Part shown: one piece after another, positions 1 to 63,463 of the stretch
How the letters are laid out: each line of letters begins with the position of its first letter
Numbering within the stretch: the first letter of the stretch is position 1
NCBI GenBank assembly: GCA_965601925.1
Contig: OZ271854.1
Span: forward strand, 4,320,001 to 4,384,000
Length of the DNA stretch: 64,000 nt
Source of the DNA: Alkalispirochaeta sp.
Lineage (GTDB): Bacteria > Spirochaetota > Spirochaetia > DSM-27196 > Alkalispirochaetaceae
Direction of reading: 5' to 3'
The notes under the pieces: model-generated
What the model was told of the DNA's origin: nothing
The model's input: the letters and a program-made list of their open reading frames with translations, nothing else
Database searches by the model: none
Translations under genes and position numbers: made by a program

Positions 1-3000
1 GTCGTCACCGCCGTACGATCCGGCGTAGTGGATCTCGTAATAGAGCGCCAAGCCCATGTCGTACAACGCGTTGCCGCCCAGTTGATTCATGGCGACCATC
101 CACGAAGCCATATCGGTCGACAGATTCTCATCCCACTCTCCGGTGAAGTAGGTGTCGGCATCGAAACGGTCTGAATCGGAACTGATGCGCGCGGTGGAGA
201 CGGAGTCGTAGTCCGGTGAGAAGGAGTACGCGCCGGTGACGAGTTGCGAGGCGGTACGTGCAATCGATGCACGGCTGGCCTGAAGCGCGCCTTCGGCCTC
301 GGCGGTTTGCCGACCCAACGTCTCGCTCGCCACCGCTCCCTCTTGGTAGGCGTTCATGGTCTCCGCTTCGGTGCTCACCAGATCGACGTACTCGTCGTCG
401 CGAGTGGCGTCGGTCACCTCATCGGCGTTCGCCACCACCAGCGCCAGCGCGGTGCGGGTGCGTTCCAGCTCGGCTGTGCGTTCGGCCACCACCGCTGCAG
501 GGTCGATTTCGGCGGTCATGTACCCGGTACGCGCGTAGTCCATGATCTCCTCGGCTTCCTGCATCGCGCGACGCGTATCGGTGTAGGCCAGCTGCGCGGC
601 GTCGACGTCCGCCGCTCTCTCCTCGTAGGTAGTCACGGCGGCTTCGAACGCTGCGATCGCACCATCGTACTCTCGGCGCGCACCATTCACCGCCTGTCGT
701 TGGCGTTCCACGTCGTCGCGCAACGGCTCGACCACGTCGATCACGTATTGCTCGATATTGCTCTGGAATGCGTTCTTCACCTCGTAGGTGTCAGCCAAAT
801 CGACCAACGCCCCCAAATACGTCGCTTCGGCACCGAGAAACATACGGCGTTCCTCCGCCCGCCGCTCGTATGCCGACTCCTCGGCGACCACCGTGGTGAC
901 ATCATCGGCGTCTTCGGCATCGAGCGTCGCGACTGCGTCGTCGATGACATCGATTACCGACGAGCTGTCTATGCCGCCGATGACTTCCGATGCGGTCGTT
1001 AAGTGGTGATAGGTACTCTGCGCCGAGTCGTCCAACAATCCCCGAAGCCATACCGCGCCGGCGTTCCGCACCGCCAGCACGTCGTACTCCGCGCGAAGCG
1101 TCGCGACGCTCGCCGGGTCGTGACTCCCGCCGACAGCGGCGGCGGCCGCCTCGCGTTCCATCTCGGTCGCCTCGGGACTCTCAAGCGTATACAGCGCCCC
1201 CTCCAACGCCTCGAGACGCACGCCGTTCTCGGCCGCGCCGACGAATGCAACGTTCGCACTCCCACCGGCCTCGGCGATACGCGCCTGAGTGTAGACGCCT
1301 AATAGGTCAACTACCGCCGTCGGTACGTGGTCCAGTGCGATCAGTTCCTCGTACATCGCGCGTAGCTCGCCGATCGTGGGTTCGGGTGTATCGGGTGTGT
1401 CGATGTTCACCAGAGGCGCGACGATCAGCTCAACCTGGAGCTGGTAGGCCACGGTATACGAACGCAGCGTGCTGATAGATACATCTTCAAAGGCGTTCCA
1501 CGCCTCCTGAGCCTCCTGCATATACGTTAGACGAACACGCTCTGGTCTTATGAGATCGTCAATCAAGACCGAGTAGTCCGTTGCAAAGTCGACGTCGCGC
1601 TCTCCGGTTCGAAACACCAGAATCGCGGTCCGCGCCTCTTCGGAATCACCGACGATTGTCGCCTCATCGATCGCCACCGCACCGGGGTCGAACACGATGT
1701 ACGCCACGCCGGGGGGCGGCTCGCCGAGCCCCGTCCCGTCTCCGACGATATAGACCGTGCCGATCGTCGGGTCCGCCGGGATCCCGCCGGCGTCCGCGAC
1801 CTCCACCACCACCGGATCGTCCGGCGCCGGCGGAAGCCCCGCATCGATCGCCGCCGCGCGTGCCTCGTCGTACGCCGTAGCGATCGCATCCTGCCTCGCC
1901 GTCGCGATAGCTTCGCTCTCAGCGGTCACCAGTGCCTCATAGTGCTCCTGAATCGCCAGCCGTGCGGCGTCCTCCGCGCTGTGCAACGCCGTCTGCGCGT
2001 CGGCAATATCCTCGCCGTGGAACGTTTCTAAGGCGTCGATCTCTTCCTGGTACAACCACGTTTGCTCTTCGGTGTATACGCGCCCTTCCAGCACATCGAT
2101 CGCGTACTCCGTGCGCGCCACATCCAGTCGCGCCCGATCGGCGAGATCGGCCAGCATGCGCTCGGCCGACAACTCGCGCAGACGACGCTCCGCGCTGCCT
2201 TCGCCTACCGCCAAGGCAGAATCGATCGCCGCCACAAGGTCGAGATACGCCGGCGCACCGGCATCCAGCCCCGCGTCGGTGACGGACTGGGTGAATCCAT
2301 CCGCCGTTACCGTCGTCCAATCGATCGACAAGCTCTCCAACGCTTCCACCGCGGTCGTCAACTCGGTCAAATCGGTGTATTCGTCGGTCTCCGCCTCTTC
2401 GTGCCCCGCCAGGTCGGCGGCGATCTCCATCGCCGTCTGCCACCGATCGGCGGCCAACGCGTCTGCGTCCGCTTGGGCGTACGTCTCGGCCCCGGCATCG
2501 CGCCCTTCACCGGCATGCCCTACTGCAGCGTCTTCCAGCGCCTCGATCAGGTTGTCGTAGACCCCGGCGTCCTGGAGCCGCCGCGCCTCCTCGGCCGCCG
2601 CCAACTCGGCGGTCAACCGGTCCAACTCCGCCTCCGCGATGTTCAACGCATTTTGCTTCTCCGCCAAGGCGGTTTGGACGCTCGGCAGCACCGTGTTGGT
2701 TATCGCCTCAAGTTCCCCGATCGCCGCCAAAAACGCCGCTTCGGCATCCTCGAACGCCGCCACCTCCGCGGCGTAGCGCGCCTCGGTCTCGGCCAATGTG
2801 GCGCGGTCCGAGGAGGTATCCGCCGCGTATGCGGCCACCGCCTCGGCGATCGCGAGCTGGCTCTCTAATGACTCGACCATACCGTTCAGACGAGCGATCT
2901 CCACCTCGCCGGAGCTCAACGCCGCCCCGTAGGTGTCCAGCGCGCCGAACATCCCGTGTAGATCGGCCTGCGCCTCGTCGCGCATCAGCTCGAAATCCGC

Positions 3001-4689
3001 GAGCACTCCGCCTGCTCCATCGGGTCCACGCCAGTACGCCAACTCCCGATTCACCGACGCCAGATTCTCGTCGATCATCCCGAGCTGCACGTCGATCAGA
3101 TTGATATCCATCACGATGCCGGCGATCGGCGCTTGGCGATCGTGCCGGGTCACTCCCAATCGCCCCTGCAGCCATGCGACCCACGCTCCCTGATGTGCGG
3201 CGCCCTGCACATAGTTTTTCAGCCGCCTATTCCGCTCGAAGGCGGTTTCGTTGCGAGTACGCTCGTCGGTGTCGCCGTTACTCTGTTTGTAGGTGTATTC
3301 GATTACGCGCGCCGGAAGCACCGACGGGTTGTATCCTTGGAGAAAGTCCTCTACGAGACCGTCGTTCTCCTCGTGCCCTCCGTCGGCAAAGGCGTGGTAC
3401 CGCGCGTTCGCAATCGCGCGCTCTCTATTTGTGCGTTGATCACGGTAGGTCGTCCGGTCCCCTTCCAGGACCTCCTTCATTCCTTCCAGCGCGGCGATGT
3501 TCTCTTCCGCCATCGCCACCACGTCGGCCGCTTGGCGATACACCGCCAGATAGGCGTCCGACTCGGCGCGTACTTTGGCCAGCTCCTCTTCCGACGCACG
3601 CGCAAGTTCAATCATCGTCTCACTGAACGCGGCGTCAAACGATGCCGTCGTCCGTGCCCACGCGTCCTCACCCTCGCGCCAGACCGACTCCATCTCCGCG
3701 ATCCAGCCCGAACGTGCCACGGTGAACTCGTCCAACGCCTCGTCCCACGCCGCCTCCGCCTCGCGATACTGCTCCTGCGCCTCCGACTCCCACGCCATCC
3801 GTTCGGCGATAAATCGCTCCTCGGCACCGTTCCACGCACTCAATCCCCGCGCAAACTCCGCCTCAAAGCTCTCCTGCCACGCCTCCGCCTCTATCCGCGC
3901 CTCGCCCACATCCGCGTCACCCTCCGGTACCAACGCCGCCAGATGCGCGCTCACCTCGTCCAACCTCACCTGCGTGTCGCGAATCAACCGCCCCGCCGTC
4001 GACCGCGCCGTCTCCTCCTCCGCCTGCCGCCGCATGCTGTAGCTGTCCTGCAACCGCCCCTGCGCCAGCCGCCGGCTCGATCGTATCACCTGCGACCGAA
4101 ACTCCCGCTCGATATGCGCCTTGTACTCGCCCACCGATACCGCCAGCTCGCTCGCCACCCTCTCCCGCACCGCGCCCTCAAACGTTCCCAACACCTCCGT
4201 CGCCGTCGCCTCCGCGCTCGCTTCCCACGCCGTGTACAACGCCGCAAACGCATCCTCGACCTCCGCCTCCCACGCCGCCGCGGCCGCCTCGTATCCCTCC
4301 GCACCCTGCAGGATCACATCCCCCGCCTCGTCGAAGGTGTACTCACCCCCGCCGTCGGTCTCGTACAGATATCGCCGATTCGCCGCATCGATCGCGCGCC
4401 GCAGCCCCGCCGCGTCGAACCGCGCCACCGACCGCTCCCATTCCGCCTCGACCACCCGGCCCAGACTCGCCGCCCACCGGTCGCCCAAGGCCGCCGTCTC
4501 CCACTCGTCCAGTCCCCCCAGGCCGATCCCCGTCACCGCCTGCCACTCCGCGATGCTCCCGCTGCGACTCGCCCGCTCGTACACCCCTTCGCCGACGACG
4601 TGATCGCCCGTCTCAACGTCGTCCGGCATCTGTCCGACGACCGTTCCCGTGCATGCCGCGATCAGTACTGCGATTCCTATTCGTCTCAT
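1..4689 (-). CDS. Giant secreted acidic Ala/Glu-rich coiled-coil protein, 3'-partial (>=1563 aa, runs off the left edge)
   Basis: ATG at 4689 follows GAGAGGA (SD-like). N-terminus MRRIGIAVLIAACTGTVVGQ looks like a signal peptide or lipobox. Hand translation stays open to base 1 (...DMGLALYYEIHYAGSYGGDD). The ORF track lists no minus-strand ORF terminating in this frame, consistent with no stop codon. Confidence 0.9.
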   Translation of the reverse strand, partial: MRRIGIAVLIAACTGTVVGQMPDDVETGDHVVGEGVYERASRSGSIAEWQAVTGIGLGGLDEWETAALGDRWAASLGRVVEAEWERSVARFDAAGLRRAIDAANRRYLYETDGGGEYTFDEAGDVILQGAEGYEAAAAAWEAEVEDAFAALYTAWEASAEATATEVLGTFEGAVRERVASELAVSVGEYKAHIEREFRSQVIRSSRRLAQGRLQDSYSMRRQAEEETARSTAGRLIRDTQVRLDEVSAHLAALVPEGDADVGEARIEAEAWQESFEAEFARGLSAWNGAEERFIAERMAWESEAQEQYREAEAAWDEALDEFTVARSGWIAEMESVWREGEDAWARTTASFDAAFSETMIELARASEEELAKVRAESDAYLAVYRQAADVVAMAEENIAALEGMKEVLEGDRTTYRDQRTNRERAIANARYHAFADGGHEENDGLVEDFLQGYNPSVLPARVIEYTYKQSNGDTDERTRNETAFERNRRLKNYVQGAAHQGAWVAWLQGRLGVTRHDRQAPIAGIVMDINLIDVQLGMIDENLASVNRELAYWRGPDGAGGVLADFELMRDEAQADLHGMFGALDTYGAALSSGEVEIARLNGMVESLESQLAIAEAVAAYAADTSSDRATLAETEARYAAEVAAFEDAEAAFLAAIGELEAITNTVLPSVQTALAEKQNALNIAEAELDRLTAELAAAEEARRLQDAGVYDNLIEALEDAAVGHAGEGRDAGAETYAQADADALAADRWQTAMEIAADLAGHEEAETDEYTDLTELTTAVEALESLSIDWTTVTADGFTQSVTDAGLDAGAPAYLDLVAAIDSALAVGEGSAERRLRELSAERMLADLADRARLDVARTEYAIDVLEGRVYTEEQTWLYQEEIDALETFHGEDIADAQTALHSAEDAARLAIQEHYEALVTAESEAIATARQDAIATAYDEARAAAIDAGLPPAPDDPVVVEVADAGGIPADPTIGTVYIVGDGTGLGEPPPGVAYIVFDPGAVAIDEATIVGDSEEARTAILVFRTGERDVDFATDYSVLIDDLIRPERVRLTYMQEAQEAWNAFEDVSISTLRSYTVAYQLQVELIVAPLVNIDTPDTPEPTIGELRAMYEELIALDHVPTAVVDLLGVYTQARIAEAGGSANVAFVGAAENGVRLEALEGALYTLESPEATEMEREAAAAAVGGSHDPASVATLRAEYDVLAVRNAGAVWLRGLLDDSAQSTYHHLTTASEVIGGIDSSSVIDVIDDAVATLDAEDADDVTTVVAEESAYERRAEERRMFLGAEATYLGALVDLADTYEVKNAFQSNIEQYVIDVVEPLRDDVERQRQAVNGARREYDGAIAAFEAAVTTYEERAADVDAAQLAYTDTRRAMQEAEEIMDYARTGYMTAEIDPAAVVAERTAELERTRTALALVVANADEVTDATRDDEYVDLVSTEAETMNAYQEGAVASETLGRQTAEAEGALQASRASIARTASQLVTGAYSFSPDYDSVSTARISSDSDRFDADTYFTGEWDENLSTDMASWMVAMNQLGGNALYDMGLALYYEIHYAGSYGGDD

Positions 4690-22868: not shown

Positions 22869-23768
22869 CTACGCCTCTTTGTAGAGCGGGTGGACTCGCC
22901 TTCGGTACGCCTCGTATCCCTCGCCGGCGTGGTACGATGAGCGTACGAGGGGGCCGGCGTCGCAATGGACAAATCCCTTCTCCAGGGCCCGGTGGCGCAA
23001 CTCGTCGAACTCCTCCGGCATCCAGTACCGCTGGACCGGCAGATGCGTGCGCGAAGGCTGGAGATACTGCCCCACGTTGAGGATCTGAATGTCGTGGCTC
23101 CGTAGATCGTCCATCGCCTCCAACACCTCGTCGCGGCTCTCTCCCAAACCGAGCATCAAACTGGACTTGGTTACCGCCTCCGGAGCGATCTCCCGCGCCG
23201 TCTTCAAGACCCGCAATGATCGGTCGTAGTCGCTGCGGGAGCGCACTTGGGGCGTCAATCGACGTACCGTCTCCAGGTTGTGACTCATAATCTCGGGCTC
23301 GGCGGCCATAACGGTCTCGACCGCCGTACGATTACCCATGAAGTCACTGGTCAGGACCTCCACCGTACACTCGTCCGTCGCGCCGTGAATCGCGCGCACC
23401 GTGTTGGCCATTACCTCCGCGCCGCCGTCTTTGAGGTCGTCGCGATTGACCATGGTAATCACCACGTGACGCAGATCCATGGCCGCCACCGAATCGGCAA
23501 CCCGCTTGGGCTCGCCGAGGTCGAGCATACTGGGGAGGCCGGTTTTCACGGCGCAGAAGCGACAGCGTCTCGTACACGTGTCGCCCAGGATCATGAATGT
23601 TGCGGTGCGATGCTGTCCCCAACACTCGTGAATATTGGGGCACCGAGCCTCTTCGCACACCGTATTGAGACGCTCCTCCCGCATGAGCTTCTTGAGGTAG
23701 CGAAAGTTATCGTTCGTGTTCAACTGTATCTTGAGCCAGTCCGGCTTCCTCGTTATCTGCGTTGCCAT
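22869..23768 (-). CDS. lipA: Lipoyl synthase
   Basis: [20 protein letters not shown] and RSSY motifs. Confidence 0.97.
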
Positions 23769-33344: not shown

Positions 33345-33381
33345 CGCTCTTGAGAAACGACATTCGATACGGGGTATGTGT

Positions 33382-34590
33382 ATGAAACGTCAATCTCTCT
33401 CCGGAAAAGTAACCGGGGTGTTTAATCAGTTCAAGGGGATCTTCAGACTTATACCGAACTTCGTCCCCAGACGATTTGCCCGCTCGGGGCATCGACTAAG
33501 GCTCCATCCCCACGACTACTATGCGCTGGGAACGAAGCGGGGTTCCATCAAAGAGCGTTGGTTCTCGTCGGTGATTCCGGCGATGAACGGCCCTCTCGCA
33601 CCCGAAGACGAGGGGCTCAGCTATGTGTCCGCCTCGGACGATCCAACTGACCGGTTTCAGCTCCGCGAAGCGGTCGATATTTTGGGGGCCGAGCTGATCG
33701 GCGCCGAACTGTACGAGAAGTATGGAACGTGGCCGATGTACTCGAAGTTTTTCGACTACGGTACGCCGCTCTTTCATCACCTCCACTTGGACGACGCGAA
33801 AGCCGCGCTCGTCGGTCGGCTCGGCAAACCGGAGGCGTACTTTTTTCCACACCAGCTCAACAACCATCTCGGTGAGTTCCCCGTCACCTATTTCGGGTAT
33901 GATCCGTCGGTAAGCATCGATGAGGTGCGCAGACGCCTCTTGGCCTTCGAGGAGGGCGACAACCGCATTACGGAACTGTCCCGAGGCTATCGGATTCAAC
34001 TCGATACGGGGTGGTATACGCCGCCGGGAGTGGTACACGCGCCGGGCTCCGTTCTCACCTATGAGCCGCAATGGAACTCAGACGTCAACTCGGTACACGA
34101 AAACGTGGTTTCCGGCGAAGTGTATCCGTACGATTTTCTCGTCGAGAATGTACCGGAAGGTAAAAAGGAGAGTATCGAGTTCGTCATGGATCTCATGGAC
34201 TGGGATAAAAACATCGATCCGCACTATCGCGAGCACTACTTCCGGCCTCCGGTACGAATACCGAACGACTCCCCCGACATTCACGAAGAGTGGATCGTGT
34301 ACGGGAACGACTACTTCGGAGGCAAAAAGCTCGAAGTAATGCCGGGCAAGTCGGTGGTGGTCAAAGACGCAGTCGCCTTTGGTTGCATCGTCATTCAGAG
34401 CTACGGAGGCTTCGGTCCGTATCTCGCGGCTGCGGCGGGGACTTTACGCTTCGGAGGTCTCAGTAACGACGAGTATTTCGTCAGCGAAGCGACGGCGCGC
34501 GATGGTTTCACGATACGAAACGATAGTCCGTTCGAGCCTATGGTGATACTCAAACACTTTGGCCCGAACCACCCAGACATGCCGCGATAG
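33382..34590 (+). CDS. Uncharacterised cupin, phosphomannose-isomerase type I-like; candidate sugar isomerase
   Basis: SKFFD...LFHHLH...GKPEAY...VHAPG resembles the PMI-I metal ligand set (Q/H-x-H, KPE, HA); sits inside the sugar operon. Confidence 0.6.
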   Translation: MKRQSLSGKVTGVFNQFKGIFRLIPNFVPRRFARSGHRLRLHPHDYYALGTKRGSIKERWFSSVIPAMNGPLAPEDEGLSYVSASDDPTDRFQLREAVDILGAELIGAELYEKYGTWPMYSKFFDYGTPLFHHLHLDDAKAALVGRLGKPEAYFFPHQLNNHLGEFPVTYFGYDPSVSIDEVRRRLLAFEEGDNRITELSRGYRIQLDTGWYTPPGVVHAPGSVLTYEPQWNSDVNSVHENVVSGEVYPYDFLVENVPEGKKESIEFVMDLMDWDKNIDPHYREHYFRPPVRIPNDSPDIHEEWIVYGNDYFGGKKLEVMPGKSVVVKDAVAFGCIVIQSYGGFGPYLAAAAGTLRFGGLSNDEYFVSEATARDGFTIRNDSPFEPMVILKHFGPNHPDMPR

Positions 34591-44704: not shown

Positions 44705-47419
44705 TCAGGCGACAAATTTCCGTAGTACCGTATGGAGAATTCCTCCGTTGCGGTAGTACTGCACCTCTACCGGCGTGTCGATTCGACACAACGTCGTGAA
44801 GCTGAACGTCGAGCCGTCCTCCTTCACGACATCCACGCGTACCTCTTGGCGCGGTTGCACCCCGTCGTCGATATGCACGGTAAAGGACTCGAAACCGGTC
44901 AGCCCTAAGCCGGTCCGCGATTCGCCGTTCGTGAACTCGAGCGGAAGGATACCCATACCGACCAAATTGCTCCGGTGGATTCGCTCGAAGCTCTCTGCAA
45001 TTACGACCTTGATCCCGAGGAGTTGCACACCCTTCGCGGCCCAGTCGCGAGACGAACCCATTCCGTAGTCCTTACCGGCGAGCACGACGGTCGGAATACC
45101 CTCAGCCTTGTAGCGCTCCGCAGCGTCGAAGATGCTTACCACCTCACGCGTCGGGGTATAGGTCGTCACCGATCCCTCGGTGCCCGGGGCGAGGAGATTA
45201 CGAAATCGAATGTTCGCGAAGGTGCCGCGCGTCATGATACGATCGTTTCCGCGACGGCTACCGTAGGAGTTGAAGTCTTTGCGCTCTACGCCCCTGTCGA
45301 CGAGAAACTCGCCGGCGGGACTATCGGGTGCGATCGCTCCCGCGGGGCTTATGTGGTCGGTCGTAATGCTGTCCCCGGCGACGACGAGAACCCGCGCGTC
45401 CTTGATCGGCTGAATCGCACGTACATCGAGCCCCATGTCCGTGAAAAACGGCGGTTCCTGAATGTAATTCGAGTCGGCGTTCCAGTCGTACAACGCCGAG
45501 CCGTCGGAGGGAATAGCGTTCCACTCCGGGTTCGAGTCCTCCAACCCGGCATAACTCTCGATGAATGCGTCGCGGTCGAGGGCCTGCCGCACGAACTCAC
45601 CCAGCTCTTCGGTAGTCGGCCAAATCTCCTTGAGGTAGACCGGCTTGCCCCCTTTATCGACGCCGATGGGATCGTTCGCAAGATCGATATCGACGGTGCC
45701 GGCGATCGCATACGCCACGACCAACGGCGGAGACATGAGAAAATTGGCCTTTGTATGCGGATTGATGCGCCCCTCGAAGTTGCGGTTGCCGGATAATACA
45801 CCGGCGACGACCAAGTCGCCCTCCTCGATCCCCTTCGCTACGTTTTCCGGAACGGGCCCGCTGTTACCGATACAGGTCGTGCAGCCGTACCCGACCAGAT
45901 AGAACCCCATCTGCTCGAGATAGGTCATAAGCCCGGTGCGTTGCAGATACTCGGTAACGACCATCGACCCCGGTGCAAAGCTCGTCTTGATCCACGGCTG
46001 TCGGTGCAGTCCGCGCTCGACGGCGTTTTTTGCGAGCAGTCCTGCGCCCAGGAGCACGCTCGGGTTACTCGTGTTGGTACAACTGGTGATGGCGGCAATA
46101 ACCACGTCGCCGTGGGTGAGCTCCTTGGTACCACCGTCGTCCAGCGTGATGGTCGCGTGTCGTGCCTTCTCTTCATCGCTCAACGCATACCCGCGCTCCT
46201 CTACGGGAGCCGCCAGCCCGCGCTGCCACTCGTCCTTTACATCGTTGATCGTAATACGGTCCTGCGGACGCTTGGGACCGGCGATGCTCGCCTCGACACT
46301 TCCGAGATCCAACTCAAGGACGGCCTCAAACTCCGGGTCGGGCGTATCGTCGGTACGGAATACCTCTTGCTCGCGGGCGTACTGTTCGACCGTCTTGATC
46401 AACTCCTCGCTTCGACCGGTCGACCACATATAATCGAGGGTCTGTTGATCGATGGGAAAGTAGCCGACCGTGGCACCGTACTCGGGCGCCATATTCGAGA
46501 TTGTGGCGCGGTCTGGAACGGTCATATGGCTGAGGCCGGTACCGAAGAACTCCACGAACTTGCCGACCACGCCGTGTTCGCGCAGCATTTGCGTTATTCG
46601 CAAGACGAGGTCGGTGGCGGTGATGCCGGGCCTGAGTGCGCCGGTAAGCTTGACCCCGACGACGTCGGGCGCGAGAACGTAGATCGGTTGTCCAAGCATG
46701 GCGGCCTCGGCTTCGATACCGCCGACGCCCCATCCGACGACGCCCAGGCCGTTTATCATCGGCGTATGGCTGTCGGTACCGACCAAAGAATCGAAGTATG
46801 CGACGGTACGTCCGTCGACCTCGCGCACCTGTACACACTTTCCAAGGTATTCAAGGTTCACCTGGTGGCAGATACCGCTGGCCGGCGGTACCACGGAGAA
46901 GTTCTCGAACGCACCCTGTCCCCAACGTAAAAACTCATATCGCTCTCGATTCCGTTGGAACTCGATCTCGGCGTTACGCTTGAGCGCATCGGAGCTGTTA
47001 AAAAAGTCTACCTGTACCGAGTGATCGATGACGAGATCGACGGGTAACTGCGGATTGATCTTCGCCGGATCGCCTCCGAGGCGCGCCATGGCGCTGCGCA
47101 TCGCGGCGAGGTCGACGACACTGGGTACCCCGGTGAAATCCTGTAGCAGCACCCGCGCCGGCTTAAAAGGTAGTTCGACCTTCTTCGGTGAGGCGGGATT
47201 GTACCGACCGATCGACTCCACGTGGTTTCGGGTGACTTCGTATCCGTCTTCGTTTCTGAGAATCGATTCGAGGAGTACACGAATCGAGAAGGGGAATCGT
47301 CGTATCTGTTCGAACCCCTGTTCGGAAAATGCCCGCAGGCTGAAGTACTCCACCTCGCCGAGAGGCGTCGCCATGTGCTTCTTAACGCCGAAGCTGTTTT
47401 CTCGAGACACGTCGCTCAT
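44705..47419 (-). CDS. acnA: Aconitate hydratase A
   Basis: [36 protein letters not shown] and [10 protein letters not shown] motifs; AAGGAG SD. Confidence 0.97.
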
Positions 47420-47509
47420 CAATTGCACTCCTTTGGGGCTCAATATACCGTTCGCGAAAGGTGGTCGACTACCTTTTTCCTTACTGGTATAGTCGCCAAC
47501 GGAGGTCAT

Positions 47510-50500
47510 ATGGAAACAGGCACGATCAAAAATACCGGCACACTCCGACAACTATACCGAACGATGGTTACCGCTCGACAGATGGACCAGATCGAGCAGA
47601 GTTACACGTCTCGCGGAGAGGCTTTTTTCCACGTTTCGGGCGCCGGTCACGAAGGATCGATAGCACTCTATCCTCACCTGAAGGACGGGGATTGGCTTCA
47701 CTGTCACTATCGCGACAAAGCGCTCATGTTGGCTCGCGGCATCTCGCCGGAGATGTTTTTCATGAGCCTGTTCAATAAAGACGCCTCCCACTCCCGCGGA
47801 CGCCAGATGAACGCCCATATGAGTGCACCTGAGTTGAACATTCTCAGCATCGTGGGACCGGTGGGCAACAGCGCGCTTCAGGCCGCCGGCGTCGCCGAGA
47901 TGGTCAAGGATTACGCCGATAATCCGATCGTGCTGTGCTCGATCGGCGAGGGCACGACGCAGGAGAGCGAGGTCATAGAGGCGATCGGACATGCGGTGCG
48001 CGAACAGCTGCCCGTCCTCTTTTTGGTTCAAGACAACTCGTTTGCCATCTCTACAAAGACGCGAGGACAAACCTTTTACTCACGGCCGTCGGGCGAGGCG
48101 GACTCGTTCTACGGCATTCCCATTACGAGGATCGACGGCCGCCACGTTACGGCGGCCATCGATGCCTTCGGTCCGGTCGTCGAGACGATACGCCGCGATC
48201 GCACCCCGCAGATCATCGTTTTTTCGGTAGAACGCTTGCACAACCATACCAACGCCGACGACCAGCGCGCCTATCGCAGCGCCGACGAGATCGAGGAGGT
48301 TGCCCGCACGAGCGATCCGATAGCCCTCCTTCGAGGCGAGTTGACCGAGGCCGGTATATCGGCCGACGAGTTGGACAAAGAAGCGGAGGAGATTCGCTCC
48401 GATCTTATAGAGAGTGCCCGAGCCGCCCAAATGAGCGCCGAACCCGAGCCCTTTCCCGACGCCAAAGCACCGCTACCCGCCCGGCTGACCTCACCCGAGA
48501 GCGAGTATACCGGCTCCGGCGAGGGTGAGCTTGTAATGCTGGAGGCGATCCGGGAGGTCCTTGACGCACGTTTGGCCGGGGACGAACGGGTGACGCTCTT
48601 CGGCGAGGATCTGGAGGATCCCAAGGGAGACGTCTTCGGCATCACCCGCGGTTTGACCCAGAAGTACGGTCGACGGGTGCGCAACAGCCCTTTGAGCGAG
48701 TCGTTGATTCTCGGCGTCTCCATCGGACGCGCCTTAGCCGGCGGACGTCCGGTCGCCTTTTTGCAATTTGCCGATTTCCTGCCTATCGCCTACAACCAGA
48801 TTTTTGCCGAATTGGGGAGCATGTTCTGGCGAACCGACGGGAAATGGAGCGTCCCGGTAATCGTCATGATCACCGCCGGGGGGTACCGTCCGGGCCTCGG
48901 ACCCTTCCACGCTTCCACGTTGGAGGCGCTGGTTGCCCACACACCGGGAGTCGACGTATTCATGCCCTCCAGCGCCGGTGACGCGGCGGGATTGTTGAAC
49001 GCCGCCTTTGAGTCCGAGCGCCCGACGATTTTCTTTTACCCCAAAAATCAACTCAACGACCGATCACGCGCTACCAGCCGCGATACGGCAAAACAGCTCG
49101 TACCCATCGGCCGCGCGCGCCACGTGACGCGCGGTGAAGACATCACCATCGTCGGCTACGGCAACACGATTCCTCTGGCCGCCCGGGCGGCCGCCGTACT
49201 GGAAACGCACGGCGTCGGCGTCGACCTCATCGATCTACGCAGCCTCGTGCCCTGGGATGTGGATACCGTGGTGGCCAGTGTCGAGCGGACCGGCCGTTTG
49301 ATCGTCGCCCACGAAGACAACCATACGGCAGGATTCGGTGCGGAGGTCGTCTCCACCATCGCCGAGAAGAGTCGTCGTCACATTGCGGCGACGCGCGTGA
49401 CGCGGCCGGATACGTATGTGCCGTGTAACTTCGGTAACCAGCTGGAGATTCTCCCGTCGTACAAACGCATTCTCGAATCGGCGGTCGAACTCCTCGGCGG
49501 TTCGATCACGTGGAAAAAGCAAAACGGCGCCGAAACCGGTGTGTTCGATGTAGAGGCGATCGGATCCAGCCCGTCGGACGAGTCGATCTCGATGGTGGAG
49601 TGGATGGTCAAGCCGGGCGATTCGGTGGACGAGGGAGATCTCTTAGCCGAAGTCGAAGCTGACAAAGCGGCCGCGGAGCTGAAATCGCCGGTAGGCGGTA
49701 CGATAGCGGAGCTCTTGATACAGGTCGGAGACTCGGTCCCGGTCGGCACGCCGATCGCGCGGATCGACACCGGTGATAGACCGGTGCACGTCAAACCGCT
49801 GACGCGCGAGGATCCGGGCGAGCCGATCATTACCGGACTTGCGGACTTCGGTGCGGCGGACGTCCACTCGACGGCGGCGCACCAAGGCGGCACCAGACGG
49901 AGCATCGCGCCGGCGGCCACCGACACGTGTTTGATCGCCGGCGTCGCCTCGCGACGCGGTTCACGGATCGTCGAGAACCGGGAAATCGCCGACATGTCTT
50001 CCGATTGGGATGGAGAGGAAATCAAAAAGCGGATCGGTATCGAACGCCGCCCGTGGGTCGCCGACGGAGAGGATACGTTGAGTCTCGCCGTCGATGCGTC
50101 GCGCTCGGTTCTCTCCCAAACCGGCGTATCGCCGCAGGAGATCGACATGGTCATCTTCTCGACCGGTACGCCGACCAGCATCACCCCCTCGATGGCGACC
50201 CTCCTACAGTTCGAGCTCTCGAAAGACGGACCCGAGGTCCGTGGTACCGCGTACGATGTAAACGCGGCGTGCTCGGGATACATATACGGTCTCCAGCAGG
50301 CGTGGGATTTCTTGAGTAACTCCCCGACCGCAAAGGTACTCCTCGTAACGAGTGAGGTATTGAGCCCGCGTCTCAACATGCAGGATTTCGGTACCGCACC
50401 GATCTTCGGGGATGCCGCGACGGCCACCATTCTGGGCGGTGCCGACTCGTCCGTCGCCTCGCGCTCCCTCGCGTCCGTCGACCGCCCGGTAACGTCGGCG

Positions 50501-50890
50501 AAGGGAGAATCCGGCGATTCCCTGCGAGTACCGCAGGATGAGAGCCTTCCCATCACAATGGACGGGCCGGCGGTATATCTGGAAGCGATCAAGGCGATGA
50601 TGGATACCCTCACGTCGAGCGCCGAGGCGGCCGAAGTGAGGCCCGACGGGTTGGACCTGTACATCCCCCATCAAGCCAACCAGCGCATTATTAACGCTAT
50701 ACGCCAGCGCATGAAGCTCGCGCCCGAAAAGATGTACAGCAACATCGCCGATAACGGCAACACCTCATCGAGTACCATTCCGTTGTGTCTCGACGAGCTC
50801 CTGCCGACGCGAAAGCCGGATCAGCTGTGGGGTCTCACGGCCTTCGGTGGCGGATTCACCTTCGGTGCGGCGATCGTGAGAACGCGCTAA
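47510..50890 (+). CDS. Fusion of 2-oxoacid dehydrogenase E1alpha, E1beta, a lipoyl domain and 3-oxoacyl-ACP synthase III (FabH-like), 1126 aa
   Basis: GGAGG SD. E1a: GHE, HYRD, GEG..24..DN TPP motif, HTNADD. E1b: FGED, PLSE, QFADF, GPFH, DLRSL.P.D. Lipoyl: EVEADKA. KAS III: AACSG, FGD, HQAN, GNTSS, FGGG. Confidence 0.92.
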
Positions 50891-50912: not shown

Positions 50913-50953
50913 AAAAAAAGCCCCGGGGCAAAGGAGGTGAAAATCCCCGGAGC
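50913..50953 (-). terminator. Intrinsic terminator downstream of msrB with anti-SD loop (possible sRNA 3' end)
   Basis: Minus strand GCTCCGGGG-ATTTTCACCTCCTTTG-CCCCGGGGC-TTTTTTT. Confidence 0.85.
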
Positions 50954-62161: not shown

Positions 62162-63463
62162 CTAAAAAATCATCCGTACCGGCTGTTCCATCATCTGCTG
62201 TAGATCGTGGATGAACCGTCCGCCGGCTGCGCCGTCGATCACTCTGTGGTCGCACGAGAGCGTCATCTTCATGATGGTACCAACGCCGAGCGCGCCGTCG
62301 GGCTTTACGACCGGTGTCGCCTTACTCGCTCCTAAGGCCAGGATCGCCGAGCCGGGAGGATTGATGATCGCGGTGAACTCCTCCACCCCGAACGACCCGA
62401 GGTTGCTGATGGTGAAGGTCGCGCCGTTATACTCTTCCGGCTTAAGCTTCCCTTCTCCCGTCTTTCGAATGAGCTCCTGCAGATCGCCGTCGATATCGAC
62501 GATACCGCGGTTTCCACAGTCGCGCACTACGGGAATCATAAGCCCGTTCCCCAGATCGACGGCCAACCCGATGTCGATACTCCCGTACTGCACGATCTTG
62601 TCGTCCTGCCACGACGAGTTAACCACGGGATGACGCTTCAGCGCTTCGGCCGCAAACTTGATGAAAAAGGCGTTGAGGGAAACTTTCGTCGGCAGCGCTT
62701 CGTTCAACATCTTGCGAGCCGCAATGATGTTCGTCATTTCTACCGACGTCTTCACGTAGAAGTGGGGGGCGCTGAACTTACTCGCTACCACGCGGCGCGC
62801 AATGGCGACTCGTTTTCCCGCAACGGGAATGACCTCATCCTCACGTGCCGGCGACGAGACGAATGCCCCGGACGCGGGCGAAGCGGCGACCGCTGCGGAG
62901 GAGACGCCGCGGAAGCTTTCGATATCGCGCTTCACGATACGTCCCGCCGGGCCGCTCCCTTTTACCAGCGCGAGATTGATATTACGCTCCGCCGCTAACT
63001 TGACCGCCAAGGGGCTCGCCTTTACGTGAGTGCCGGTCGCTGTTTGGGCGACGCGCGCCGGCTCGCTCGGGGTACGGTCGGCGGCCGGCGCCTCTTCTCG
63101 CGGCGGCGCCTCGACGGCGGGGGGAGGCGTCTCCGGCGGCGCTTCCGGCGCCGGAACGGCAGCTGAGGATGGCCCACCCGAGCCCTCGTCCGCGATCTCT
63201 TTCTCGATCGCCGCAAGGTCTTCGCCCTTCTCGCCGAAAATCGCAATCGTCTGTCCGACTCTGGCGTTACCGCCTTCGCCGACGACGATCTTTACGATCG
63301 TGCCGTCTTGCGGCGATTCATAATCCATAGAGGCTTTATCGGTCTCGACCTCACACAGTACGTCGCCCGCGGAGACCTCGTCACCCTCTTTGACGTTCCA
63401 ACTGGTTATCGTGCCCTCCTCCATCGTGGGGGAGAGGGCGGTCATCGGTATCTTTTCAGCCAT
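62162..63463 (-). CDS. pdhC: Dihydrolipoamide acetyltransferase (PDH E2)
   Basis: Lipoyl EVETDKA, Pro/Ala linker, E3-binding ASPLA...GSGPAGRI, catalytic DHRVIDGA. Confidence 0.94.
   Translation of the reverse strand: MAEKIPMTALSPTMEEGTITSWNVKEGDEVSAGDVLCEVETDKASMDYESPQDGTIVKIVVGEGGNARVGQTIAIFGEKGEDLAAIEKEIADEGSGGPSSAAVPAPEAPPETPPPAVEAPPREEAPAADRTPSEPARVAQTATGTHVKASPLAVKLAAERNINLALVKGSGPAGRIVKRDIESFRGVSSAAVAASPASGAFVSSPAREDEVIPVAGKRVAIARRVVASKFSAPHFYVKTSVEMTNIIAARKMLNEALPTKVSLNAFFIKFAAEALKRHPVVNSSWQDDKIVQYGSIDIGLAVDLGNGLMIPVVRDCGNRGIVDIDGDLQELIRKTGEGKLKPEEYNGATFTISNLGSFGVEEFTAIINPPGSAILALGASKATPVVKPDGALGVGTIMKMTLSCDHRVIDGAAGGRFIHDLQQMMEQPVRMIF

Follow-up and report, generated by a model that had tools for sequence, protein, structure and literature searches.

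When a 2-oxoacid dehydrogenase lacks its acyltransferase core and a ketosynthase follows its lipoyl domain, what becomes of the acyl group carried by the lipoyl arm? The question is raised by a single gene in a 64,000-nucleotide stretch of DNA from Alkalispirochaeta sp. (contig OZ271854.1, positions 4,320,001 to 4,384,000; the whole stretch is termed the window below), which belongs to a one-contig 5.05-Mb genome. The gene is a fusion in which the alpha and beta parts of a thiamine diphosphate (ThDP)-dependent E1, a lipoyl domain and a FabH-type ketosynthase (KAS III) succeed one another. The answer favored here, at a probability of roughly 60%, is that the fusion serves as an accessory primer synthase for iso-branched fatty acids that is predicted to work independently of coenzyme A (CoA). 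That the lipoyl arm would load the KAS III directly, without acyl-CoA, as the initial annotation had proposed, is supported because the CoA clamp is lost family-wide (kept intact in 0/150), because the tails of related proteins are swapped and because KAS III occupies the E2 slot of a two-gene form.

Architecture of the fusion

The fusion is one stop-free open reading frame (ORF), from ATG at 47510 to TAA at 50890, encoding 1126 amino acids. Its parts are as follows.

47501..47505, plus strand: GGAGG ribosome-binding site ahead of the ATG at 47510 (sequence)
47510..50890, plus strand: whole fusion ORF, E1alpha-E1beta-lipoyl-KAS III (ORF and profile searches)
47540..48448, plus strand: E1alpha domain (Pfam PF00676)
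48530..49489, plus strand: E1beta domain (PF02779 and PF02780)
49544..49768, plus strand: lipoyl domain, with Lys719 (49664) within EADK (PF00364)
49772..49927, plus strand: linker with a semi-conserved KPxTRExPGxP start (alignment)
49928..50887, plus strand: KAS III domain (sequence profiles)

Pfam places E1_dh at residues 16-313, Transket_pyr at 343-516, Transketolase_C at 534-645, Biotin_lipoyl at 692-752, ACP_syn_III at 915-979 and ACP_syn_III_C at 1039-1124, so that ORF and Pfam agree on the four-part composition first read from the DNA. The E1alpha part carries the ThDP/Mg motif, GEG (47945) followed by DN (48035), and a loop histidine, His246, at 48245; the catalytic residues of E1beta are Glu397 (48698) and His467 (48908). 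The lipoyl Lys and the KAS III triad, Cys921 (50270), His1054 (50669) and Asn1084 (50759), lie exactly where the initial annotation had put them. Its claim that there is no E2 acyltransferase core also holds: a Pfam search of the protein gave neither PF00198 (E2 core) nor PF02817 (E3-binding domain), the linker has no PF02817 match even at E up to 1, and the E2-type motif DHR..[DN]G occurs in 0/150 aligned fusions. Across the family the linker between lipoyl and KAS III domains is 27-82 amino acids long (median about 45).

All residue counts are from an alignment of 150 of 365 full-length fusions. The KAS III triad is retained almost throughout (Cys 150/150, His 148/150, Asn 150/150), the lipoyl Lys719 in 149/150, and E1 residues Glu397, His467 and His246 in 150/150 each. 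Because catalytic residues are near-universally kept, all four domains are under selection.

Loss of the CoA clamp

In FabH the adenine of CoA is held between W32 and R151 (E. coli numbering). The equivalents in this fusion are Glu837 (50018) and Phe960 (50387). Across the family the W32 position is Trp in 2/150 and Asp or Glu in 133/150, R151 is kept in 1/150, and the two occur together in none. As controls, both clamp residues are present in all 113 of the nearest standalone FabH proteins, with 7 lipoyl-bearing or partial rows counted apart, and in 7/7 FabH from this genome and six other loci. Among PDB structures the KAS domain matches 2aj9 best; this FabH entry has Ala at both clamp positions and is presumably the M. 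tuberculosis W42A/R161A mutant.

KAS III in the acceptor position

Among 27 relatives of other lengths whose tails were surveyed, 13 have an E2 core. Two E2-tailed relatives run on, P0200 as E2-ACP and P0185 as E2-ACP-KS-MT-C-A, one relative (P0155) ends in a thioesterase, and one KAS fusion (P0140) continues into KR-ACP; a GNAT-like tail in P0142 (Atlas score 0.84) is a lead only. E2, thioesterase and KAS III tails interchange at this point, and it is simplest to suppose that the terminal domain accepts the acyl group from the lipoyl arm. Given its varied tails, the E1-lipoyl module would be a portable acyl-donor module for loading polyketide synthases (PKS) and nonribosomal peptide synthetases (NRPS). 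A quick E1beta tree of 80 rows groups the 35 KAS-linked rows, without exception, into one clade of 44 (support 99); this clade is sister to E2-tailed proteins and has three E2-tailed rows nested inside it.

A two-gene design occurs as well, in which an E1beta gene, with E1alpha and E1beta fused, is followed by a separate lipoyl-(PSBD-like)-KAS III gene in the usual E2 position (3/3 loci read; proteins P0524 and P0525):

L340:606-2894: two-gene locus
L341:3-1918: two-gene locus
L342:1498-4088 (genome G422): two-gene locus

The linkers of this form give weak PF02817 scores, below the cut-off, and its origin is possibly independent. In Atlas, lipoyl-KAS III clusters are recorded for Planctomycetota, Fibrobacterota and Verrucomicrobiota; 94% of the members of one such cluster have PF02817 (score 0.87, a lead only). 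A split arrangement, E1-lipoyl plus KAS as a pair, is also found (L164).

Substrate pocket of the E1 part

The best solved match of the E1alpha part is the 2-oxo acid dehydrogenase of T. thermophilus, 1um9, followed by human branched-chain 2-oxoacid dehydrogenase (BCKDH), and a GRQMxxH segment with an aligned Phe and Tyr is common to all three. In this fusion the residues are F40, Y67 and GRQMNAH (47798-47818), a pocket of branched-chain type, with F40 kept in 148/150 fusions, Y67 in 149/150, M100 in 139/150 and H103 in 131/150; the pyruvate dehydrogenase (PDH) and acetoin-type E1 of the same genome have GKGGSMH in place of GRQMxxH. From these residues the substrate looks to be a branched-chain 2-oxoacid rather than pyruvate. 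Of the two substrates first suggested, the branched-chain one is thus favored, by the pocket and by the iso-fatty-acid link below, and pyruvate is not.

Spread and authenticity of the family

Homologues of the fusion number 1745, and all 120 among the matches listed share its six Pfam domains, with identities of 56-94%; the closest are titled Alkalispirochaeta and Spirochaeta. Databases name such proteins after one single domain. Within the family of the host the fusion is present in 15/17 genomes, this one included (14/16 relatives), and absent from two that are 94-95% complete (G001 and G002). An assembly artefact or chance fusion, absent from relatives, had been envisaged as refutation; it is ruled out by the 120 same-domain homologues and the presence in 14/16 family relatives. 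One contig of run X1 covers the ORF without difference, though that run may be the source sample and so is not independent.

The family extends over spirochaetes, PVC bacteria, rhizobia, Devosia and cyanobacteria, a lower bound taken from the best 80 of 570 relatives (599 stretches), E1-only relatives included. Named carriers include Planctomycetota, Verrucomicrobiota, Nitrospirales, Rhizobium, Devosia insulae, Rosistilla, Ruficoccus, Ca. Accumulibacter and the cyanobacterium Anthocerotibacter. One genome has two fusion copies in broken frames (G419:C1:813834-817290 and 1146697-1148883), which may reflect sequencing errors or decay.

Partner genes

An initial suggestion was that carrier genomes might lack standalone FabH or E2. 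They do not: this genome has two canonical FabH copies, one adjoining fabD, fabG and fabF, and four E2 cores, each within its own operon (sucAB, PDH, acetoin-like and sugar-type), while each of the 14 other carriers examined has standalone FabH and E3 together with one or more E2 cores. The fusion as sole starter enzyme is thereby ruled out, the part of the original proposal that did not stand, and because FabH, E2 and E3 are retained it is taken as an accessory primer route. No orphan E2 was found in this genome, and no separate Bkd-type E1 is among its three other E1 sets. Acyl carrier protein (ACP) is encoded once, far from the fusion; LipA, LplA, LeuA and E3 are all encoded. The separate PDH operon reported nearby is indeed there, as is lipA:

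22869..23768, minus strand: lipA, lipoyl synthase (profile match); the lplA ligase is elsewhere in the genome
60761..62152, minus strand: lpdA, the E3 of the PDH operon (TIGR01350, over cut-off)
62162-63463: PDH E2, in the PDH operon
from 63468 on: pdhB, with pdhA just past the window end

The product of lpdA is a candidate for re-oxidizing the lipoyl arm of the fusion in trans. Also in this genome are an 819-amino-acid fused E1 with E2, E3 and a neighboring regulator-like gene (G000:C1:3594947-3600197) and an acetoin-dehydrogenase-like E1/E2 set (G000:C1:243780-247219).

A dedicated PKS/NRPS cluster was rejected as context, there being none in this window or among 76 scanned neighbors of fusion loci. 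Conservation of neighbors was not seen outside Rhizobium and spirochaetes. In a Schlesneria metagenome-assembled genome (MAG; L172:4001-9142), the fusion precedes a small ACP-like ORF with no NCBIfam match, after which comes a BioF/serine-palmitoyltransferase-like gene; here the product of the fusion may go into a branched sphingolipid or aminolipid.

A possible link to iso-branched fatty acids

Among 71 of 102 relatives of the R. rhizogenes protein (at least 45% identity), 11 named Rhizobium species are carriers, all of the tropici/rhizogenes clade, and no title is from R. leguminosarum, R. etli or Ensifer. Exact-peptide matches were obtained in 46/151 genomes of Rhizobium and in 1/201 drawn from its family; such patterns can miss diverged copies, and R. 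cauense surfaced only in a different search. None of 81 genomes searched in this survey yielded the two-gene type. Table 3 of PMC7656272 gives iso-15:0 3-OH at 1.1-14% in 6/6 strains of five carrier species and has R. leguminosarum without it, and in the available portion of PMC13077888 iso-C15:0 3-OH is given for Martinezella, of the tropici clade, and not for the three other new genera shown.

At Rhizobium loci a fatty-acid hydroxylase gene lies upstream of the fusion in 40/41 cases, with an OlsC-like gene within 4 kb in 33/41, an arrangement found at 0/22 Devosia loci. OlsE and OlsC are assigned to those two hydroxylase families (PMC12971839). At L105:2717-8243 and other Rhizobium loci the fusion stands between OlsE-like and OlsC-like hydroxylases, the likeness being by family membership, near crcB and a ClC channel; this locus would be an acid-tolerance lipid region of the tropici clade. 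In R. rhizogenes NBRC 13257 no Bkd-type E1 is among 7 matches.

For spirochaetes, the fusion is present in 15 of 50 genomes with spirochaete 16S examined (from 50 among at least 80 listed loci, mostly MAGs): 5/5 Oceanispirochaeta and 3/3 Marispirochaeta, with 0/9 in Sphaerochaetaceae. Oceanispirochaeta M1 and M2 are dominated by iso-odd chains, with iso-13:0 at 12-22% and iso-15:0 at 16-24% (PMC11129491, including Table S45), and iso-15:0 is 11.7% in S. pacifica and 3.0% in S. africana (PMC4511686 and supplement 2). In the family of Salinispira some form occurs in 6/8 genomes, one of them in broken frames. Devosia insulae may have branched fatty acids as well. For this species, Table 6 of PMC4838601, in the part available, lists no branched fatty acids, the acids listed summing to ~70% against 90-100% for eight others.

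A proposed mechanism and its rivals

From established E1, lipoyl and FabH chemistry, a five-step cycle can be drawn. The E1 part would decarboxylate 2-oxoisocaproate, the keto acid of leucine and probably the main substrate, by means of ThDP, with the Ile and Val keto acids used less; lipoyl-Lys719 would be reductively acylated; thioester exchange would move the acyl group onto Cys921; His1054 and Asn1084 would drive condensation with malonyl-AcpP to give 3-oxo-5-methylhexanoyl-ACP; and the dihydrolipoamide would be re-oxidized by shared E3. The product would enter type II fatty-acid synthesis and yield iso-13, iso-15 and iso-17 chains, with the two ordinary FabH continuing to make straight chains. 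The likely gain would be that the branched acyl group is kept out of the CoA pool, away from the drain of Ptb/Buk or leucine catabolism.

A number of observations weigh against this mechanism or the lipid link. The retained FabH, E2 and E3 genes of the other carriers are among them. A Trp four residues before the W32 position (Trp833) is present in 79/150 fusions and could take over part of the role of W32; it falls in the W32 column with one MAFFT run but not with HMMER or hhalign. At the position of F87 there is Thr892, Thr being found in 130/150 fusions and 6/113 standalone FabH; it presumably resembles the long-chain pocket of mycobacterial FabH and may indicate a roomier acyl pocket for a longer acyl group. 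The KAS of two-gene proteins P0524 and P0525, with Tyr at W32, retains R151. A VorB-Buk-Ptb locus in this genome (G000:C1:4792579-4798065; L339), a route for anaerobic fermentation of branched-chain keto acids, can supply branched acyl-CoA in another way and also drain it. Besides the fusion, R. multihospitium and R. dioscoreae carry a classical bkd operon, and R. tropici CIAT 899 is not among the 71 of 102 relatives considered above. R. leguminosarum has 1.2% iso-17:0 although not found as a carrier (PMC7656272), and a Salinispira MAG has neither the one-gene nor the two-gene form, yet S. pacifica bears iso-15:0. Genome strains and lipid-data strains often differ, and the link comes down to about two independent lineages or contrasts, kin not being independent, so that it is suggestive.

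One rival keeps the CoA-free hand-off and changes what is handed over: pyruvate, 2-oxobutyrate, a 2-oxoacid with a longer chain or a glycolyl unit derived from a ketose, as with QncN/QncL, would be channeled to a special lipid or metabolite and not to bulk iso-fatty acids. Thr892 and the LSP at 951-953, which match mycobacterial FabH hits, would suit it, as would the Schlesneria gene order, the sister E1-lipoyl modules that load PKS/NRPS lines (P0185, P0200, P0140) and QncN/QncL as a known E1-lipoyl-acyltransferase-to-ACP system (PMC6335953). Given, on the other side, the BCKDH-type E1 pocket, the single ACP of the genome, the empty PKS/NRPS scan, an iso-fatty-acid link in two lineages, and PDH with two FabH already covering acetyl priming, it is judged unlikely.

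The domains might instead be merely co-localized, a borrowed E2 core making acyl-CoA from the lipoyl arm and KAS III using it like any FabH. E2 cores do occur in every carrier examined, R36 is kept in 94/150 fusions and R249 in 145/150 (both here), and a Trp at position 28 might serve to stack the adenine; that W32 and R151 are never kept together, with W32 mostly replaced by an acidic residue, that the four E2 cores here are tied to their own operons, and that KAS III sits in the E2 slot of the two-gene form make this quite improbable. Also conceivable is a KAS III domain that is a transacylase only, shifting the acyl group from the lipoamide onto holo-ACP and leaving the first condensation to FabF. 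The sister tails E2-ACP and thioesterase are pure acyl-transfer domains, and transacylating KAS III relatives are known. Known KAS III transacylases usually alter the His/Asn decarboxylation pair, however, and its near-complete retention in the fusions leaves little room for this reading, which is very improbable.

Comparison with known systems

The putative accessory primer synthase can be compared with its closest counterparts. In the textbook route to iso and anteiso fatty acids, a BCKDH complex (E1alpha2beta2/E2/E3) feeds FabH (PMC9328018). The fusion shares with it the BCKDH-type E1 pocket, a lipoyl arm, a Cys-His-Asn KAS III and the same predicted branched 3-oxoacyl-ACP; it differs in being one polypeptide without E2 core or E3-binding domain, in its predicted independence of acyl-CoA and in a KAS III without the clamp. 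Of the features of 2-oxoacid dehydrogenases, it has a ThDP E1 with Glu and His and a modifiable lipoyl Lys, and lacks the E2 core and the E3-binding domain. With FabH it has in common a fold predicted from sequence and the triad, and passes NF006829 narrowly (251.2 against 249); unlike FabH it fails TIGR00747 (227.4 against 292.1), lacks W32 and R151, and is tethered to a lipoyl arm. The fusion would, from its sequence, work like BCKDH plus FabH yet belongs to neither by defining features. All-in-one E1alpha-E1beta-lipoyl-E2 fusions (P0151, P0182, P0188 and others), the sister group in the E1beta tree, share its first three domains and end in an E2 core (DHRxxNG) where the present fusion ends in KAS III.

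By analogy, the nearest precedent would be QncN/QncL. In QncN/QncL/QncM of quinocarcin and SclQ1-4 of scleric acid, ketose phosphates give a glycolyl unit for an NRPS (PMC6335953). Set alongside by description, these too have a ThDP E1 and a lipoyl domain loading an acyl group towards ACP; an E2-type acyltransferase, a dedicated ACP and ketose phosphates are theirs and not the fusion's, and they have no KAS III and no condensation. The fusion has no E2 core, and neither a dedicated ACP nor an NRPS is among its neighbors. BioZ (3-oxopimeloyl-ACP synthase), with a biotin route from 2-oxoadipate, was considered and rejected, BioZ-named entries scoring 103-108 bits where the best FabH scores 157; no bio-type families are among the 76 fusion neighbors, the lone oxoamine-synthase neighbor being that in Schlesneria.

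No published description of an E1-lipoyl-KAS III fusion was found in searches that covered mainly openly accessible literature. None is described in the available part of PMC8204192, on a tiny verrucomicrobial genome, and the gene is not mentioned in those of PMC5936775 (with two supplements), PMC3557214 and PMC4838601.

Surroundings in the window

The head-to-head neighbor of the fusion is acnA, across a 90-bp gap:

44705..47419, minus strand: acnA (profile match)

Aconitase adjoins the fusion gene in 37 spirochaete loci also, and the acnA, neuB and serS neighbors are probably spirochaete synteny only. Between the fusion stop and msrB, a 9-bp hairpin with 7 U (50913-50953, minus strand; z -2.84) is likely the terminator of msrB. 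Upstream of the fusion, a single promoter-like site (47465-47493) is at chance level, and Rfam gave no match anywhere in the 64-kb window. Elsewhere, a 404-amino-acid gene (33376-34590, plus strand) inside a sugar ABC-transporter/kinase/epimerase cluster, with no NCBIfam match at 1e-30, is possibly an unusual sugar isomerase, and positions 1-4000, with strong negative GC skew, raised GC and odd-looking long plus-strand ORFs, probably hold a large minus-strand gene running off the window.

Significance

To our knowledge, textbooks have every fatty-acid primer pass through acyl-CoA and FabH. There is perhaps an even chance that the E2 core of a 2-oxoacid dehydrogenase has been replaced by a ketosynthase at least twice, with acyl-dihydrolipoamide priming fatty acids, that this explains the iso-lipids of marine spirochaetes as well as the iso-15:0 3-OH of the tropici clade, and that such a gene could switch on iso-lipids in any host with lipoylation and E3. 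The carriers include culturable rhizobia, so the idea is open to direct testing. If true, feeding a ketosynthase from a lipoyl arm would couple reactions in a new way, with branched primers made outside the CoA pool, and would offer a one-gene tool for engineering branched-chain lipids. It would also provide the gene behind a long-used chemotaxonomic marker, the iso-15:0 3-OH of the R. tropici clade, and would affect how iso-fatty-acid biomarkers in sediments are interpreted.

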